A DNA stretch of 64,000 bases from an uncultured virus (IMG/VR IMGVR_UViG_3300023180_000043). Its lineage: Duplodnaviria > Heunggongvirae > Uroviricota > Caudoviricetes. The translations under genes and the position numbers were made by a program. Shown one piece after another: positions 5,065 to 12,300 of this stretch. The stretch lies in IMG/VR virus record IMGVR_UViG_3300023180_000043. One strand, written 5' to 3'. Numbering within the stretch: the stretch's first letter is position 1; each line of letters begins with the position of its first letter. The notes below the pieces were generated by a model. The model was not told where the DNA came from. It did no database searches and saw only the letters and a program-made list of their open reading frames with translations.

Positions 5065-6371
5065 GCCTCACCTCCGAGCATCGCATTCTGCCCAAGACGA
5101 TTCCCCGCATAGTATCCAGCAATCTCGTCCGCGGTTACTCCATACAGAGTTCCCTGTGGTTGTTGCATTAGATACTGACGATAAACCTCAAGCTGCTTTG
5201 ATCCCATTGTAACCATAAGCTTTGGAATGCTTACACCATACTGATCTGTCTCAACCTTTAGGTGAGGACACTCTTGATTAAGGCAGGTTTGGCACTTACT
5301 CATCATATTTTCACCAGATAGATCAAGCACTTGTACATTCTGTGAAAGCTGATCTGCACAGTTACTGCACATAAAAGTACTACCTTGGATATCCATATCG
5401 ACGTGATACTGAGAGGTACACCATAGATTCTGACCACAGTTTGAGCAGGTTCCTACTGGCCGATCTGTACAGATCATCTTCAAAGGATCCAGCAAGTCAG
5501 AACCTTCAATGCATCCTTTAAGAGCAAAGAGTGTTTCCTTACACACTAAAGGTGTATTCTCCAACGCCTCTTCTTGCTTAAACTGCGCAAACGAGTTGTA
5601 CAGCTCCTCTGAGTGGACAGACCATGAAGGACCTACTTCATACTTAAGATAGGCCAAGGCTTCTTTGATTAGCCCTACCTTTTTCATCATCTCCTGATTC
5701 GTATTATCTCGAATGTCAAAATCTGGCTCTTCTTCTAGTGGTGACAAGTCTGGTGGCGGGGTGGCATTGAAGGAGTGCAGGAATGCCATCTTGTAATCTT
5801 TCTCATTACAGCAGGAAATGATGTGTGAATGGTCACACAGGTAGTCCATACCGTATGAATCACACATCCACATAAGAGTTGCCCATACGGCACGTTCTAC
5901 CGCTTCGATTGGTGGTTTTGAAACCCGCAACTGAGGACAATATGTATCACGAATAAATGACACGATCTCAGTTTTCTCCATACTAGAAAGCCCTGGGTGG
6001 TTCCGTCGAACAGGAAACATAGAAGCAGACTGGTCATCGCGAAAGATCTTGTAGAATGATGGATCCATCTCAGTAGATCCAGCTCCTACGTACTTCCAGA
6101 CAGTCTTGTACTCTTCTCCCGAATGAAATGTGCTGGTATAGTAATACGGCCACCAGCCCGTAATCCGTACCCAGTCTACTGTAGCGGTGATACAGACTGG
6201 GATCCATAGTGGATCAAACTGAGTTATGTCAAACCCGAAGGTTTCACTCAGCGTGTCTGTTACATAGTTCATGATGGCTCTGGGTGGCAACCATCCTTTT
6301 CTGCTTTGCATTGCTCCTATCATTTTGTTGATGGCAATTTCGTTTTGTTGTTGTTGGCGAGTTAGTTGCAT
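5061..6371 (-). CDS. hypothetical protein (436 aa) with C-terminal multi-CxxC zinc-binding region
   Basis: AAGGAG SD; CSNC..C, CSNC and CQTC..CPH motifs. Confidence 0.85.
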   Translation of the reverse strand: MQLTRQQQQNEIAINKMIGAMQSRKGWLPPRAIMNYVTDTLSETFGFDITQFDPLWIPVCITATVDWVRITGWWPYYYTSTFHSGEEYKTVWKYVGAGSTEMDPSFYKIFRDDQSASMFPVRRNHPGLSSMEKTEIVSFIRDTYCPQLRVSKPPIEAVERAVWATLMWMCDSYGMDYLCDHSHIISCCNEKDYKMAFLHSFNATPPPDLSPLEEEPDFDIRDNTNQEMMKKVGLIKEALAYLKYEVGPSWSVHSEELYNSFAQFKQEEALENTPLVCKETLFALKGCIEGSDLLDPLKMICTDRPVGTCSNCGQNLWCTSQYHVDMDIQGSTFMCSNCADQLSQNVQVLDLSGENMMSKCQTCLNQECPHLKVETDQYGVSIPKLMVTMGSKQLEVYRQYLMQQPQGTLYGVTADEIAGYYAGNRLGQNAMLGGEA

Positions 6372-7003: not shown

Positions 7004-7393
7004 TTAATACAAGTCCTCCCACTGATCATAATAATCAGCCATGTAGCTATCCACCTCTTCTGCAAGGGCTCTGTACGGCTCAATGCCCCAATCATACGCT
7101 TCAATGTATCGCAGACGTGCAATTTGCTCCGCAAATTTCTCCTGTAGACCAAGGTCTAGGCCGCATCGTGCATCGTGCGGAATTGATTCCTTAAGAGAGT
7201 AATATTCGTCTGCCATCTCCGATGGACACTCTTTTTCACAGAGTTCCCAGCTCATGTCGGGCATTACAGTCAGTACGTAGTACTGGCTGTTCAAGCAGAT
7301 TTTAACTTTGTTCTTGATATCTTCCTGTACAGCTTCTAAGCTGTCCAAGATGTTTATCGCTGCTGCTGCTTCTAACACAACATTTCTTAACAT
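7004..7393 (-). CDS. acidic hypothetical protein (start adjusted to MLRNV)
   Basis: GGAG SD before ATG at 7393. Confidence 0.75.
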   Translation of the reverse strand: MLRNVVLEAAAAINILDSLEAVQEDIKNKVKICLNSQYYVLTVMPDMSWELCEKECPSEMADEYYSLKESIPHDARCGLDLGLQEKFAEQIARLRYIEAYDWGIEPYRALAEEVDSYMADYYDQWEDLY

Positions 7394-7447
7394 GATAAGC
7401 TCCAAAAAATGCTCCCAACCATCACACCGGGAGGCTTTATAATATTA

Positions 7448-7491
7448 TGTGTGACTAAAATACTTATTCTAAAAAATACTTTTTTCTTGCA
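7448..7491 (-). promoter_or_regulatory. putative phage promoter, copy 2 (TGCAA-N17-GAATAAGTATTTTAGTCACACA)
   Basis: Repeat of 6910-6953 with the same 17-nt spacing. Confidence 0.6.
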
Positions 7492-7516
7492 GACATGGCT
7501 AAGAATCTATTATAAC
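7487..7516 (+). promoter_or_regulatory. sigma70-like rightward promoter (TTGCAG-N18-TATAAC)
   Basis: Resembles the consensus; upstream of the rightward block. Confidence 0.4.
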
Positions 7517-7548
7517 TAGGGTAGTACATTACAGAAATAGGAGTACTT

Positions 7549-7911
7549 ATGGCTAAAGTTACAGAAAGCAACATCGATATCCCAGCTGGAACAAATCCGC
7601 TAGACCGTACAATCACTGAAACCGTGATTCGAGATCCAAAAGAGCATACAAGTTATGTTTCTGTAGATGGGCAAACTTATACGTTTAGAACCCACTATGT
7701 TAAAGATCGTAAGTTAGTAGCTGTTCCTCGTCGAAATGAACTGGCTCTCTTTCTTGCATTGCGCGAAGTCGGACTAGGCGGGTCCCCCTTCCCAGTTATG
7801 GATGCCTTCAAGCTCAGAATTGAAGATGTAGATGGTAAAGCCGTTTATCCAGTTCCTGTTCCAGAAGAAGTGGAAGAGGGCCCAAACGAGAACTTTTCAC
7901 TCGGAGACTGA
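7549..7911 (+). CDS. hypothetical protein (120 aa)
   Basis: AGGAG SD; first gene of the rightward block. Confidence 0.85.
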   Translation: MAKVTESNIDIPAGTNPLDRTITETVIRDPKEHTSYVSVDGQTYTFRTHYVKDRKLVAVPRRNELALFLALREVGLGGSPFPVMDAFKLRIEDVDGKAVYPVPVPEEVEEGPNENFSLGD

Positions 7912-8306
7912 TTCAAGAGTTTCAGTCTGATCTATCTTATAGTGAAGTATCTGGTACTTTAAGATGCTCGGCTTGCAGTGATGTAAGCCAAGCGTCACAA
8001 GAAAAACTAGAAGAATATGCTATAACAAATAGGTATGTATGTAGGAGATGTGATGAGTTCCAAAAGACTTCAGGTAATGAACGCTTTAGATCGAGCTATG
8101 GCGGACAACGAAAAGAATCTATTTACAATCGAGCTACTTCTAACGAAGTCTCCAGTGAAGGGGGTAAAGTGCGGCGGTATCGCAGTGTACATGCTATCAA
8201 AGCAATCCGAGATGCTGGACTTCAAAGAAGACGTAAATCCTTTAGAAAAGTTCGAGGCAGAGAAAGCGTTAAACGAGATGACGGACGTAATGATCCGGCC
8301 TCTTGA
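7911..8306 (+). CDS. hidden zinc-finger ORF (CxxC-x21-CxxC) with no canonical start; ATT start or -1 frameshift extension of 7549..7911
   Basis: Frame is stop-free from 7839 to 8303; encodes LRCSAC...YVCRRC; fills the 7912-8052 gap. Confidence 0.55.
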   Translation: MQEFQSDLSYSEVSGTLRCSACSDVSQASQEKLEEYAITNRYVCRRCDEFQKTSGNERFRSSYGGQRKESIYNRATSNEVSSEGGKVRRYRSVHAIKAIRDAGLQRRRKSFRKVRGRESVKRDDGRNDPAS

Positions 8307-8586
8307 AAAGTTTAAGGCAGACACAGGTGCTTGGCTTAACTATGCTCTCCCCAGAGTATTGGAGATCTTTGATGAGTTTCATAAAGATGCTGACATTGTA
8401 ATTAAGAGCCCTAAACTTAAAATTAAGCACCATATCAAACGAGCTGATGTTCTTAAGTTAAGAAAAAACCCCGGCAAACTTTTTAGGATTGCTTTTGAGA
8501 TTGACAAGCTACTTGATGGCAACTTTGAGTACGATCCTTGGTCTACCCAGATTAGACGTGGTGCAATTGGAGCTCACATTAAATGA
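8053..8586 (+). CDS. hypothetical protein (start adjusted to MSSKR)
   Basis: AGGAG SD at 8043-8047. Confidence 0.8.
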   Translation: MSSKRLQVMNALDRAMADNEKNLFTIELLLTKSPVKGVKCGGIAVYMLSKQSEMLDFKEDVNPLEKFEAEKALNEMTDVMIRPLEKFKADTGAWLNYALPRVLEIFDEFHKDADIVIKSPKLKIKHHIKRADVLKLRKNPGKLFRIAFEIDKLLDGNFEYDPWSTQIRRGAIGAHIK

Positions 8587-8912
8587 ATGTTCTAGAAGTA
8601 CTTAAAACGATTGAAGTTCTTGAAGGTAAGATTCAACTCTGCGTATTGGTGAAAGAGTACATCTCAAAGATTAAGAGTGAGGAAGAGTCTATTTATGATA
8701 AAGAGCTCGGTAATAATCTCAATACGATATGCGATGAGGCACTGGTTCAGTTAGACACCTTGCACCAAAGTATGTTAGGTGACTTAAAAACAATACACAA
8801 ATCTGAGGTGAAAGTTGATAGTGGTAAAAGCAAAGGACCCAGAACACGCAAAACTTCCAGTAAAACAACTGCTACAAAAAGTAGTGGAGCCGGAAGTCGA
8901 AAGAGCAAGTAG
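8583..8912 (+). CDS. hypothetical protein with basic low-complexity tail
   Basis: ATGA coupling; GGAG SD. Confidence 0.75.
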   Translation: MNVLEVLKTIEVLEGKIQLCVLVKEYISKIKSEEESIYDKELGNNLNTICDEALVQLDTLHQSMLGDLKTIHKSEVKVDSGKSKGPRTRKTSSKTTATKSSGAGSRKSK

Positions 8913-9012
8913 GGTTTTTGAGAAAGTAACGAAATCAAAAATGACAGGGATGGAGAAGGAGATTCTTAAGTTTTACCTGTTTCATTGTATAAAGGGTACT
9001 ACTGATGAATAA
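8815..9012 (+). CDS. small hypothetical protein overlapping the previous gene
   Basis: GAGGTG SD at 8805-8810; fills the 8913-9004 gap. Confidence 0.5.
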   Translation: MIVVKAKDPEHAKLPVKQLLQKVVEPEVERASRVFEKVTKSKMTGMEKEILKFYLFHCIKGTTDE

Positions 9013-9271
9013 AGAGCAGAAAATAATTGAAGAGATCATACGAAGTCTTGTTGATGAGAAAGAAAAAGTTGAGGTCACCTGTACGCTTACTAGCCACACA
9101 GCTGTATATGATATTAAGGTTGCCAATAAAGATGTTGGGAAAGTTCTTGGGAAAAAGGGAGCATACGCAGACGCATTACGTACCATTTTTGGAGCAATAT
9201 ACGGAAAGTCTGGAAAGAAACTACACTTACAGGTATATGTTGAGCCTAAAGTCCAAAAAGAAGTAAAGTAA
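9005..9271 (+). CDS. khpA: KH-domain RNA-binding protein, KhpA/YlqC-like
   Basis: 88 aa; IIRSLVD..V.V....V...DVGKVLGKKG...ALRTI with GxxG loop, matching KhpA architecture. Confidence 0.85.
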   Translation: MNKEQKIIEEIIRSLVDEKEKVEVTCTLTSHTAVYDIKVANKDVGKVLGKKGAYADALRTIFGAIYGKSGKKLHLQVYVEPKVQKEVK

Positions 9272-9322
9272 AACATCACAAGTCTTTCTGTATTAAGTTA
9301 GAATAATAACAAAGAGAGACAC

Positions 9323-12300
9323 ATGGATCCTACACAAGTACAGCAAAACGTTGCACCTCCCGGCACTTTTAATCCTCAATACGGGATCGGAGGTCAGGGA
9401 CAACCACAAGGGCAAGCCTTACCAGCACCTGGTCTAAGGGATATGATGAACTCGCCTGTGGCGACGAGTCAACAATATACAGCACTTTCCGGGATGTATG
9501 CTGCGTCTGCGGCTGGACAGTCTATGCAGTATGGTGGCATGATGCTGGGTATGGGGTTACCCATGATGCGACCAGCACTGGAGGCTGCAACAAGCAGTAC
9601 AACAACTTTTGGCCGTGCTGTTAGGGGTGCTAAGTATATAGATGCTTTCGAAGCTCCGATGATGCTTGGTAGGAATCTGTATGGTGGGATTGCAGGAAGC
9701 GCAGCAGGAACAGGTACATCCTTCTTTAGTATGCGATTACCGAGAATGGCGAGAGTAGCAGGGGGTGCGGCTGCTGGTATTGCAGGAATCGCAACTGGTG
9801 GATTGCTCATGGCTGCCTCTGAAGGCTTAATGCGTGCAGGGGAGATGACGTATGAAGGTGCAGCGGGTCTGGCTAGAGGTGCAGGCTTTGCATCCAACTT
9901 TGTAGGGAATGATTTTAGCTACTCGCAATCTCAAGCGGAGAATATGGGTAGACACGGGGGCTTCCTAGACTCACTACAAAGCCAGACTGGATTAAACTTT
10001 GATCAGGTCAGTCAAATGACTGGGGTGCTTAAAGCGCAGGGGTCTTTAAGCGGAGCTTCTAACTTAAAGCAGTTCAAAACTAAGTTATTGCAATCCCTTA
10101 GACAACTTAAAGAAATATCAGATGAAGCAAACATAAGCATAGATGAAGCAAATCAGATTGTGCAAAGTTTGGGTAGTGCATACGGAGATAGTTCTGGTGG
10201 GCATAAAATGTTAGCAGGAATTAAAGATGCCAGCACAGCCCTTGTGGCAAGATCTAGATCCTCTGGTATTGGTGTTGGCCAGATGATGCAACTGGGTCAA
10301 GTAGGGGCTCAAACAGCATTCCAAGCAGGGCTAGGTAGAGCTTATGGTGCCACCATGACTCAAGGGATGGCTGGGACACTTGCTGGTCTGTACGAGTCAG
10401 GTGGTGTTAATCGATCTTATGTAGATGCACTCGGCGGTAAAGAGGCTGTTGCTGCCACATTAAGTCAAAAGCTAATGCAATCAAATGCCCAGTTCGGGAT
10501 GATGTTCACAAAGGTCGACGAAAAGGGTGTTGCCAGTATCGACTACGCAAAAATACAAGATATTCAATCTGGCAAAACATCTCTAGAGAAAGAGATGGAA
10601 AAAATTATGAACCCTACATCAATCACACAGGTTCAGGAACAACAGAAAAGGATGCAAGCTTTCTTGGATAATCCGAATCTGGCTGGTAAGGTACAGGAAG
10701 AGTCTTTACGTTTAATTCAAACAGCTGCTCGTAATGACCCGGGGTCACTAGAAAATGTACTAGGCATGCATAGACGTCAGATTGGTATGTTGGGTCAGGT
10801 TCTAGATGGAAGCGAGGCAGAGGCAAGAAGAGTAGAAGCAGAAAGACGTCGAGGTATGAATGTTGCAGCTGAGCAAGGTATCTTTGCAAGAAGCGCTCAG
10901 CATGGCGTAGGCGACCTGTTTTATCAAGCTTACGGGATTGGTAAGTTTGACGATGCGTTCAGAGGCTTCGGTGAAGGGCTGGCAAGAGCTGGCTCTTCTA
11001 TGATGGCACCATTTAGAAATACAACCTCAACACCTATTGGTATCTCAGACTCTGCAATTAGTAGCTATCAAAGCATACTTCAAAACCGGTCTAAAGGGAT
11101 CGGATTTTCTGCTGCAGACGTTCAGCGTTTAACCAGATTTGGCGCATCCGCTGCGCCAGGCGGCGGTAGGGGCTTAGGCGGTTTCTTTTTGGGTGGTAGC
11201 GATATGGATCTTAGAGAAGCGCTAACTACGGATCCAAGGTACCAAAGATTCATGGGTCTAGGCGGTTCTGAAGGTATAGACGGTCTTGACTATTTAGAAG
11301 TTGATCCAGTAGGCTTAAACATGCTGAGAAGTTCCCAGCAAATGAGATTAGTAGGACACGCCTCCTTAGGGCAGGATCTTATGAAACAAAACAGGGCATT
11401 TGGCAATGTACGATCTCAGTTTGGTGGAGAGATGGAGTATGCAGCAATCAATGTGGCCCGAGAGCTAAATATGGCAGGCACATTAGGTAAAGGTGCAGGC
11501 GGGTACGGAGAGGCTACAGATTCACAAATGAACGCTATCGTTAGAAGATTCCAGCAGAAGGGTGTTCAGTTTAGACGATCAGGGTTTAGAGGTAAGAACT
11601 TTGAAAATAAAGAAAAAGCCAAAAACCTTTCGCTACTTTTGGGTAGAAGCGCAACATCTATTGAACAGGAGCTGCGAGGAAAATCTCCTGCTCAAATAGA
11701 CCAGGCATTATCTCAATATGAATCCCAACTTACAGACGATCAACGTAAAAAGTATAAAAATAATATGAGAGCTGCAGCGGATGCTGGCTATGAAGTAACA
11801 GATGAAAGGGAAATGCAACTGATGGCAAAGCAAATGCTTTCGATGACAGGAGAGATAGATGAAGAAGGGTTAAGGGACTACTTCCAAACTGATCAAGCAT
11901 CCCTCGATTTAGGTTTCTCCAATGCGGACGCGGCGAGAAACTCTTTATTAGGCATTAAAACCGGTGGGCAGGTTACATATACTACCTATGCATTACCGAC
12001 CGTAGGTGGGATGCTGTTTTCAGACATAACGAGTATTGGAAAAGCCACCAAATCGTACGATATTGAGCTTGGAGAAAAAGATATTAAAGACCTCTCAGGC
12101 GATCAGATGTATCGGGCTAGCCAAATCTTAGGAGATTCTGGTAAAAGTAAACAGCAGAAAATCAAAGAGATTGGAGATCTTGGGGTAAACGATAGTCTAT
12201 TGCAAAAGTTAACACAAGCAGTTGAAAACGGAGATCCACAAGTTCTTCAGAAACTGCAGTCTAAGATGAACTTAGCTGGCCAAGCTATACTGGACTTCGA

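Follow-up and report, generated by a model that had tools for sequence, protein, structure and literature searches.

A conserved phage reading frame without a start codon, and its probable entry by -1 frameshifting from the gene upstream

How might a reading frame with no start codon of its own be translated? The question is raised by a locus in an uncultured tailed phage, where a frame missing from the open reading frame list runs from the end of one small gene (gene A) into the next (gene C) and encodes a four-cysteine motif. The initial annotation offered two answers, a -1 frameshift within gene A and initiation at an ATT codon at the gene A stop. We favour the first, with a probability of about 0.7: a programmed -1 frameshift in gene A that would yield a minor 252-aa product carrying a Cys4 finger and a basic tail.

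The locus, its relatives and the gene A family

The window, that is the whole stretch of 64,000 nt that was analysed, makes up the leading 64 kb of one contig of 74 kb, and the sequencing runs that match it best are salt-marsh metagenomes. Among its products are virion-like proteins, some of them resembling tail fibres, an SNF2 helicase and a sigma-70-type factor; look-alikes of DNA polymerase A, primase, DnaB-like helicase and RecA were also recognised by eye on the contig. The operon of interest reads, on the plus strand, gene A, the hidden frame (Z), genes C, D and E, a KH-domain gene and a gene for an 1181-aa protein. Gene A is the first gene of this operon, its upstream neighbour lying on the opposite strand. 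The KH-domain protein (9005-9271, plus strand) is of the KhpA/B type (PF13083, E 1.7e-18) and holds the same position in relative L003. The start codon of gene E is a TTG that has the Shine-Dalgarno sequence GAGGTG 4 nt upstream and is aligned in the window (8815-9012, plus strand) and L003 (~5258-5455); this start lies about 98 nt inside gene D (8583-8912), making a second long overlap in the operon, there with an ordinary start. The features of the locus are collected in Table 1.

A metagenome scan returned four loci, L001 to L004. L001 is identical to the window at the locus and is not independent of it, and L004 was rejected as a relative, its similarity being a spurious 22-residue match. 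Three distinct loci (the window, L002 and L003) and five strain runs made up the comparison set. The gene A proteins of L002 and L003 are 86% and 81% identical to that of the window, and the L003 operon has the gene order of the window. Scans of viral contigs gave no true relative, the sole locus returned (L005) being an antisense frame of an unrelated gene; scans of genome contigs gave no relative, no GenBank phage matched gene A or gene C, and this genome has no paralogue of the locus.

Gene A protein had no family match in Pfam, PHROG or NCBIfam. Its profile found 85 hits at 50% clustering, some of the weak ones probably unrelated, and one unnamed PHROG was matched by 1 of 62 family members. 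The pattern [FY]x[LIVM][GA] occurred within the last 10 residues of 47 of the 85 hits; CxxC occurred in none of the 85, and no natural in-frame fusion was found among them. Many of the family members P0026-P0108 start with PPxGVS and end in an acidic stretch followed by FSLG[DE], an ending that resembles the SSB acidic tail in design. The gene A model (pLDDT 82) was confident over residues 30-100. Foldseek gave no match with E<=0.001, and the best VIA Z score was 2.7; Atlas ranked Phage_TAC_5 30th for gene A with a score of 0.85, which is a lead only. A description of the family was not found in the literature searched, most subscription papers being outside the reach of that search. Contigs of RNA run X11 match the window at 7540-7931 and 8276-8469; they do not show strand or level and were not counted as expression.

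Table 1. Positions of the features discussed, numbered from the first letter of the window
Feature	Position	Strand	Remarks
Shine-Dalgarno AGGAG of gene A	7539..7543	+	identical in window, L002 and L003
Gene A, no assigned family	7549..7911	+	120 aa; folded core, residues ~30-102; FSLGD closes the acidic tail
Stretch with no listed substitution in any of four diverged strains	7879..7948	+	full length covered by X21 only
Slippery heptamer C_CCA_AAC, putative -1 shift site	7881..7887	+	sole canonical heptamer in the eligible stretch
Predicted transframe segment	7887..8306	+	139 codons; stop-to-stop frame 7839-8306
GGAG-ACTG-ATT, rival non-AUG start	7903..7913	+	overlaps gene A stop; ATT in four strains, CTA in L002 and L003
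7-bp hairpin	7905..7928	+	role as conserved stimulator not supported
Cys4 motif CxxC-x21-CxxC, predicted zinc finger	7965..8051	+	4/4 Cys in 3/3 loci
Gene C Shine-Dalgarno AGGAG, falling in the codons for the second CxxC	8043..8047	+	3/3 loci
Basic tail of the -1 frame, dual-coded with gene C	8052..8306	+	84 aa, pI 11.1; stop avoidance
Gene C, 177 aa	8053..8586	+	first 254 nt overlap the -1 frame

Coding evidence for the hidden frame

Checked against the sequence, the -1 frame is open for 155 codons, with CSAC (7965-7976) and CRRC (8040-8051) spaced by 21 residues, as first annotated. In 39 long genes of this genome, 3 of the 1831 -1 runs that are free of stops reach at least 73 codons; frame length is thus not unique here, and it is conservation across relatives that carries the weight. 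Both L002 and L003 keep the Cys motif and the open frame, in register with the window, and the alignment has no gap between the last part of gene A and the end of the finger. Among the three loci the Cys codons swap synonymously between TGC and TGT, and the residues between the cysteines vary. Over the 46 single-coded codons, differences at first, second and third codon positions numbered 13/11/18, 22/14/30 and 20/17/30, an excess at third positions. In strain X21 the single-coded part of Z carries three synonymous and two conservative changes.

Downstream of the finger, dual coding with gene C had been proposed, and the pattern of codon choice supports it, the overlap being 254 nt if gene C begins at ATG 8053. 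This ATG has AGGAG 5 nt upstream; ATG 8035 was rejected as the start, being changed in strains X17, X21 and X22, and the gene C form from 8077 had no match in Pfam, PHROG or NCBIfam. At the stop-risk junctions of the overlap, T was used at 0 of 20 in the window, where 8.5 were expected (P ~5e-6, for a region that was picked because it is open), and at 0 of 19 in L002 and 0 of 21 in L003, loci that share ancestry and for which 8-9 were expected from this genome. Past the overlap, T stands at 20 of 30 risk junctions in the window and 15 of 25 in L003. The three loci differ at about 30-55% of synonymous sites, and the avoidance in L002 and L003 spans most or all of the 254 nt. Stop avoidance in the overlap is therefore firm. 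Selection on the amino acids of the Z tail is suggested, mainly by the blocks KVRRYRxVH and KSFRKVR, which are kept in all three loci; synonymous change at non-risk sites was mildly lower inside the overlap (9/29, vs 10/18, window against L003), and strain tests of synonymous change there gave p values of 0.034 and 0.149.

Several searches with the frame were negative. The model of the finger (pLDDT 49.5 overall, about 59 over the finger itself) is a beta-hairpin followed by helices and gave no significant fold match. Among called proteins none matched the finger frame (lengths of 72-272 only; best Atlas score 0.78), which is explained by gene callers missing a frame that has no start. Rfam gave no match at the gathering level over 7300-9400.

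The lack of a finger-frame homologue among called proteins would also fit a relic, decaying or untranslated, that lost its start codon or that arose incidentally through constraint on gene C and the Shine-Dalgarno sequence of gene C. Gene C does force part of the amino-acid conservation in the overlap, and the R of CRRC is that Shine-Dalgarno sequence. A relic of this kind is largely refuted by the four cysteines, kept through synonymous changes while the residues between them vary, by the third-position excess in the single-coded part, and by the absence of stop-creating choices from all three loci; its probability is very small. Z is almost certainly a real, conserved coding frame without a start codon, as judged from these patterns of substitution.

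At its downstream end (window, 8278-8306; L002, 4726-4732), Z stops in each of the three loci no more than about 30 nt from an internal ATG of gene C that is conserved, and in L002 it stops 1 nt before this ATG. No Shine-Dalgarno sequence was seen at the internal ATG; reinitiation to give a shortened gene C product is possible.

Routes into the frame

The claim that no ATG, GTG or TTG precedes the first Cys was borne out in the window and is equally true of L002 and L003; near-cognate or canonical starts before the first Cys of the window are CTG 7908 and ATT 7911 only. In the -1 frame, stops lie upstream at 7863 in strain X19, at 4315-4317 in L002 and at 4339-4341 in L003, which leaves for entry the final 14, 15 and 7 codon pairs of gene A in the window, L002 and L003, respectively. 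Initiation upstream of 7866 was rejected because of the X19 stop. Every eligible stretch contains a single canonical heptamer: the window and L002 have C_CCA_AAC, and L003 has A_AAT_TTT.

C_CCA_AAC is in phase with gene A, as had been claimed, and is invariant in L002 and in strains X17, X19, X21 and X24. The codons GGC CCA AAC GAG AAC are identical in L002, where about half of the other synonymous sites of gene A differ. In the four strains, 18/47, 11/20, 11/22 and 7/15 gene A codons are changed up to 7878, and 0/11 from 7879 on, counted among the substitutions listed, with contig ends trimmed and with many changes shared by the strains. This halt of synonymous change at 7879, seen in 4/4 strains, has a Fisher p of 0.002-0.010, the strains not being independent; the last free position, 7878, directly precedes the codon that supplies the first base of the heptamer. 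Conservation of a zero-frame X_XXY_YYZ at synonymous positions, one of the marks by which bacterial -1 signals are judged, is what was found here, with a different heptamer in L003. We also asked how often such a heptamer would fall in the eligible stretch by chance. At the genome rate of 51 per 19294 codon pairs, the chance is 0.036-0.059 for the window, 0.039 for L002, and 0.018 for the different heptamer of L003; given the protein sequence, with only synonymous choices free, it is 0.26-0.31. The heptamer statistic is strong only if the signal has shaped the residues PN and ENF; it is weak if the demands of the protein hold them fixed.

In-phase X_XXY_YYZ heptamers are under-used in the 39 long genes, with 51 observed and 77.8 +/- 8.4 expected. 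Relatives known from protein only have P, K, L or S before the conserved Asn113. P, K and L fit X_XXA_AAC, whereas S and the D-P cases do not, and none of this was counted as evidence. Transcriptional slippage was rejected, the longest run at the junction being T4 in the window.

The overlapping G_GGC_CCA (7878-7884), also put forward as a site, did not hold up: it is lost through G>A at 7878 in all four strains and in L002, and it is one of three heptamers in E. coli that stayed below threshold despite a strong stimulator (PMC4066793). In the part of that survey drawn on here, C_CC.A_AA.C belongs neither to the top class nor to the three failures in E. coli, which need not be the host of this phage, and H_HH.U_UU.Y, which covers the A_AAT_TTT of L003, is among the most efficient classes. 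In the same part, shifting above background in the absence of a stimulator is reported for about 61% of heptamers, with a level of about 0.3% for the best three (PMC4066793). Because stimulator-free shifting is common in E. coli, a low-level shift would be expected here.

The 7-bp stem that had been proposed as a stimulator is not supported. Its arms (7905-7911 and 7922-7928) are present, but it starts 17 nt downstream of the heptamer, folds at the level of shuffled sequence and shows no covariation. Segments of 40-90 nt beginning 5 or 7 nt after the heptamer gave folding z values of -1.3 to +1.8. In a consensus fold of the three sequences, 0 of 11 pairs had a compensatory change, and the main stem is broken at 4 of 7 pairs in L003. 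One 103-nt segment reached z values of -2.3 in the window, -2.2 in L002 and -0.65 in L003, and a longer outer stem at 7895-7947 in the window, starting 7 nt after the heptamer, is possible and not clearly shared. In all, the three sequences gave no significant or covarying stem-loop near the site. In bacterial -1 signals a stem-loop or pseudoknot shortly 3' of the site and an internal Shine-Dalgarno sequence upstream of it are frequent without being obligatory; at this locus the purine-rich stretch upstream of the heptamer varies among strains by eye (7869, 7870, 7872 and 7878).

The main weakness of the frameshift reading lies in L003. There C_CCA_AAC is lost, the orthologous codons being CCA AAT, followed directly by TGA in the -1 frame, and A_AAT_TTT stands three codons later. 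Since the site of the window would be unworkable in L003, turnover of the site must be assumed; the sequences suggest that the shift site of L003 was displaced by three codons in the downstream direction, to A_AAT_TTT. With the heptamer otherwise invariant and constraint beginning at it, a -1 shift at C_CCA_AAC giving the 252-aa fusion is the best-supported of the readings proposed for the window.

The second answer of the initial annotation makes the finger frame a separate 131-aa gene, reached in the window's clade by termination-coupled reinitiation at ATT 7911 or CTG 7908. The TGATT at the gene A stop resembles the ATGA and TGATG couplings elsewhere in the operon, GGAG lies 4 nt upstream, and the ATT is kept in 4/4 diverged strains. 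AUU initiates at 1-2% of the AUG level in E. coli and starts infC and pcnB, according to the portion of bioRxiv 10.1101/063800 used here. The window is like these genes in having AUU behind GGAG and unlike them in that the AUU is kept in neither L002 nor L003. Both have CTA at the place, and L003 has GGCG where the window has GGAG; a non-AUG start conserved in orthologues behind a Shine-Dalgarno sequence is not what the three loci contain. The near-cognate codons of L002 and L003 lie downstream of a conserved EFxS and have no well-spaced Shine-Dalgarno sequence, and none of the near-cognate codons with such a sequence is common to the three loci at an aligned place. Further, L002 keeps GGC CCA AAC GAG AAC in spite of having no ATT, which initiation leaves unexplained. 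ATT initiation does not stand as a general mechanism and can be at most a clade-specific side route; as the sole route it is unlikely, and it may run beside the frameshift in the window's clade.

Site turnover would be spared by recoding at or near the gene A stop, with one mechanism for all three loci: from the last codon, one tRNA would slip or a short hop would take place, with the aid of a hairpin containing the stop codon and possibly of a conserved FSLG[DE] nascent peptide. The GAC T before the stop is invariant in 3/3 loci, the stop lies within the hairpin loop in L002 and L003, and FSLG[DE]-like terminal motifs are widespread in the family (47/85), a fact that a protein-binding hook explains equally well. 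The last codon differs, however (GAC against TCC), and has no matched -1 codon with which to re-pair; the landing codon of L002 and L003 is TCA rather than TCC or TCT. The hairpin is broken in L003 as described above, and constraint in the strains begins at the heptamer, 30 nt upstream. Recoding at the stop is rather improbable.

An artefact of sequencing or assembly, or recent mutation of an ATG to ATT, is suggested by nothing more than the similarity of TGAT-T to TGAT-G and is refuted by the contigs of seven runs over 7911-7913, those of X4, X7 and X11 matching the window and those of strains X17, X19, X21 and X24, some 6-9% diverged over those contigs, having no T>G or indel (the absence of T>G in strains X17-X24 being taken from counts by kind of change, all accounted for elsewhere), and by the lack of an ATG there in L002 or L003.

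Predicted products and comparison with known systems

Under the proposed -1 frameshift, ribosomes translating gene A would slip back one base at C_CCA_AAC at low frequency and read the Cys4-finger frame, which takes in the last part of gene A and the opening 254 nt of gene C. The short product would be the 120-aa protein A, whose acidic tail bears the family motif FSLGD. The long product would be 252 aa (113 + 139 residues), with the last 7 residues of A swapped for 139 residues of pI 10.0, so that FSLGD would be lost and the finger and basic tail gained. The same count predicts fusions of 242 aa in L002 and 253 aa in L003. From the composition of the two forms and the presence of a KH RNA-binding protein in the operon, we tentatively suggest that the short form binds a protein partner by its acidic tail. 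The long form, made at a fixed low ratio, may link this core to nucleic acid by means of its finger and basic tail, perhaps serving as adaptor or regulator from the first position of the late-gene cluster; this functional reading is a possible one that may well be wrong. Ribosomes reading Z would cross the start of gene C and could tune its translation.

The 21 nt at 8235-8255 are identical in the window, L002 and L003, encoding NPLEKF in gene C and KSFRKVR in the -1 frame, and they contain TCC TTT AGA, which resembles the influenza PA-X site UCC_UUU_CGU. A second shift here, +1 back to the gene C frame at TCC_TTT_AGA, would give an A-finger-C fusion, and one mRNA would then yield A, A-finger-tail, C and A-finger-C. 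Beyond this block a further 3-5 risk sites go by without a stop in Z, and dual protein constraint also explains the identity of the block; we hold the second shift to be highly improbable.

The likeness of this locus to the λ gpG/gpGT frameshift is partial. As in λ (PMC5009743, in the part used here), a small upstream ORF carries a slippery heptamer close to its 3' end, a short and a long product, here predicted, have the N-terminal domain in common, the shift here probably being a low-level one, and the genes belong to a late or virion region of a tailed phage. The analogy to chaperones linked to the tape measure, drawn in the initial annotation, does not carry over. Unlike its λ counterpart, gene A opens its operon after a divergent gene, no tail-tube gene lies upstream or was identified on the contig, and in neither the window nor L003 does gene A sit between genes for a major tail protein and a tape measure. 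Four genes (C, D, E and the KH gene) precede the 1181-aa gene, itself only a candidate tape measure; gene A had no match to a chaperone family or chaperone HMM; and the predicted extension, made up of a Cys4 finger and a basic tail, overlaps the next gene by 254 nt.

Frameshifted C-terminal extensions are described for gene 10 of T7 and T3, for Lactobacillus phage A2 and for Listeria phages A118, A500 and PSA (PMC5009743, same part). There, as here, a shift near the end of a gene adds a domain to a minority of chains. In those capsid and major-tail cases the upstream product is a major virion protein, whereas here it is a 120-aa protein that is not one, the extension is not Ig-like, and the shift removes a conserved terminal motif. 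The tau and gamma products of dnaX (PMC5009743, likewise in part) offer a likeness in that two isoforms of one gene differ by a C-terminal functional domain; no conserved Shine-Dalgarno or stem-loop stimulator was found here, and the proteins are unrelated. In the reviewed cases covered by that part of PMC5009743, phage frameshifts fall to tail chaperones and major virion proteins, and the setting of gene A is outside both.

In sum, a conserved coding frame of about 140 codons escapes gene callers at this locus, and the candidate signal for entering it occupies less than 100 nt. If the proposed reading is true, a conserved -1 shift occurs in an uncharacterised, widespread phage protein family without a recognised fold, with apparent turnover of the slippery site between lineages. 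Through the shift, an acidic tail presumed to bind protein would give way to a zinc finger followed by a basic tail, in a product that spans two adjacent genes.
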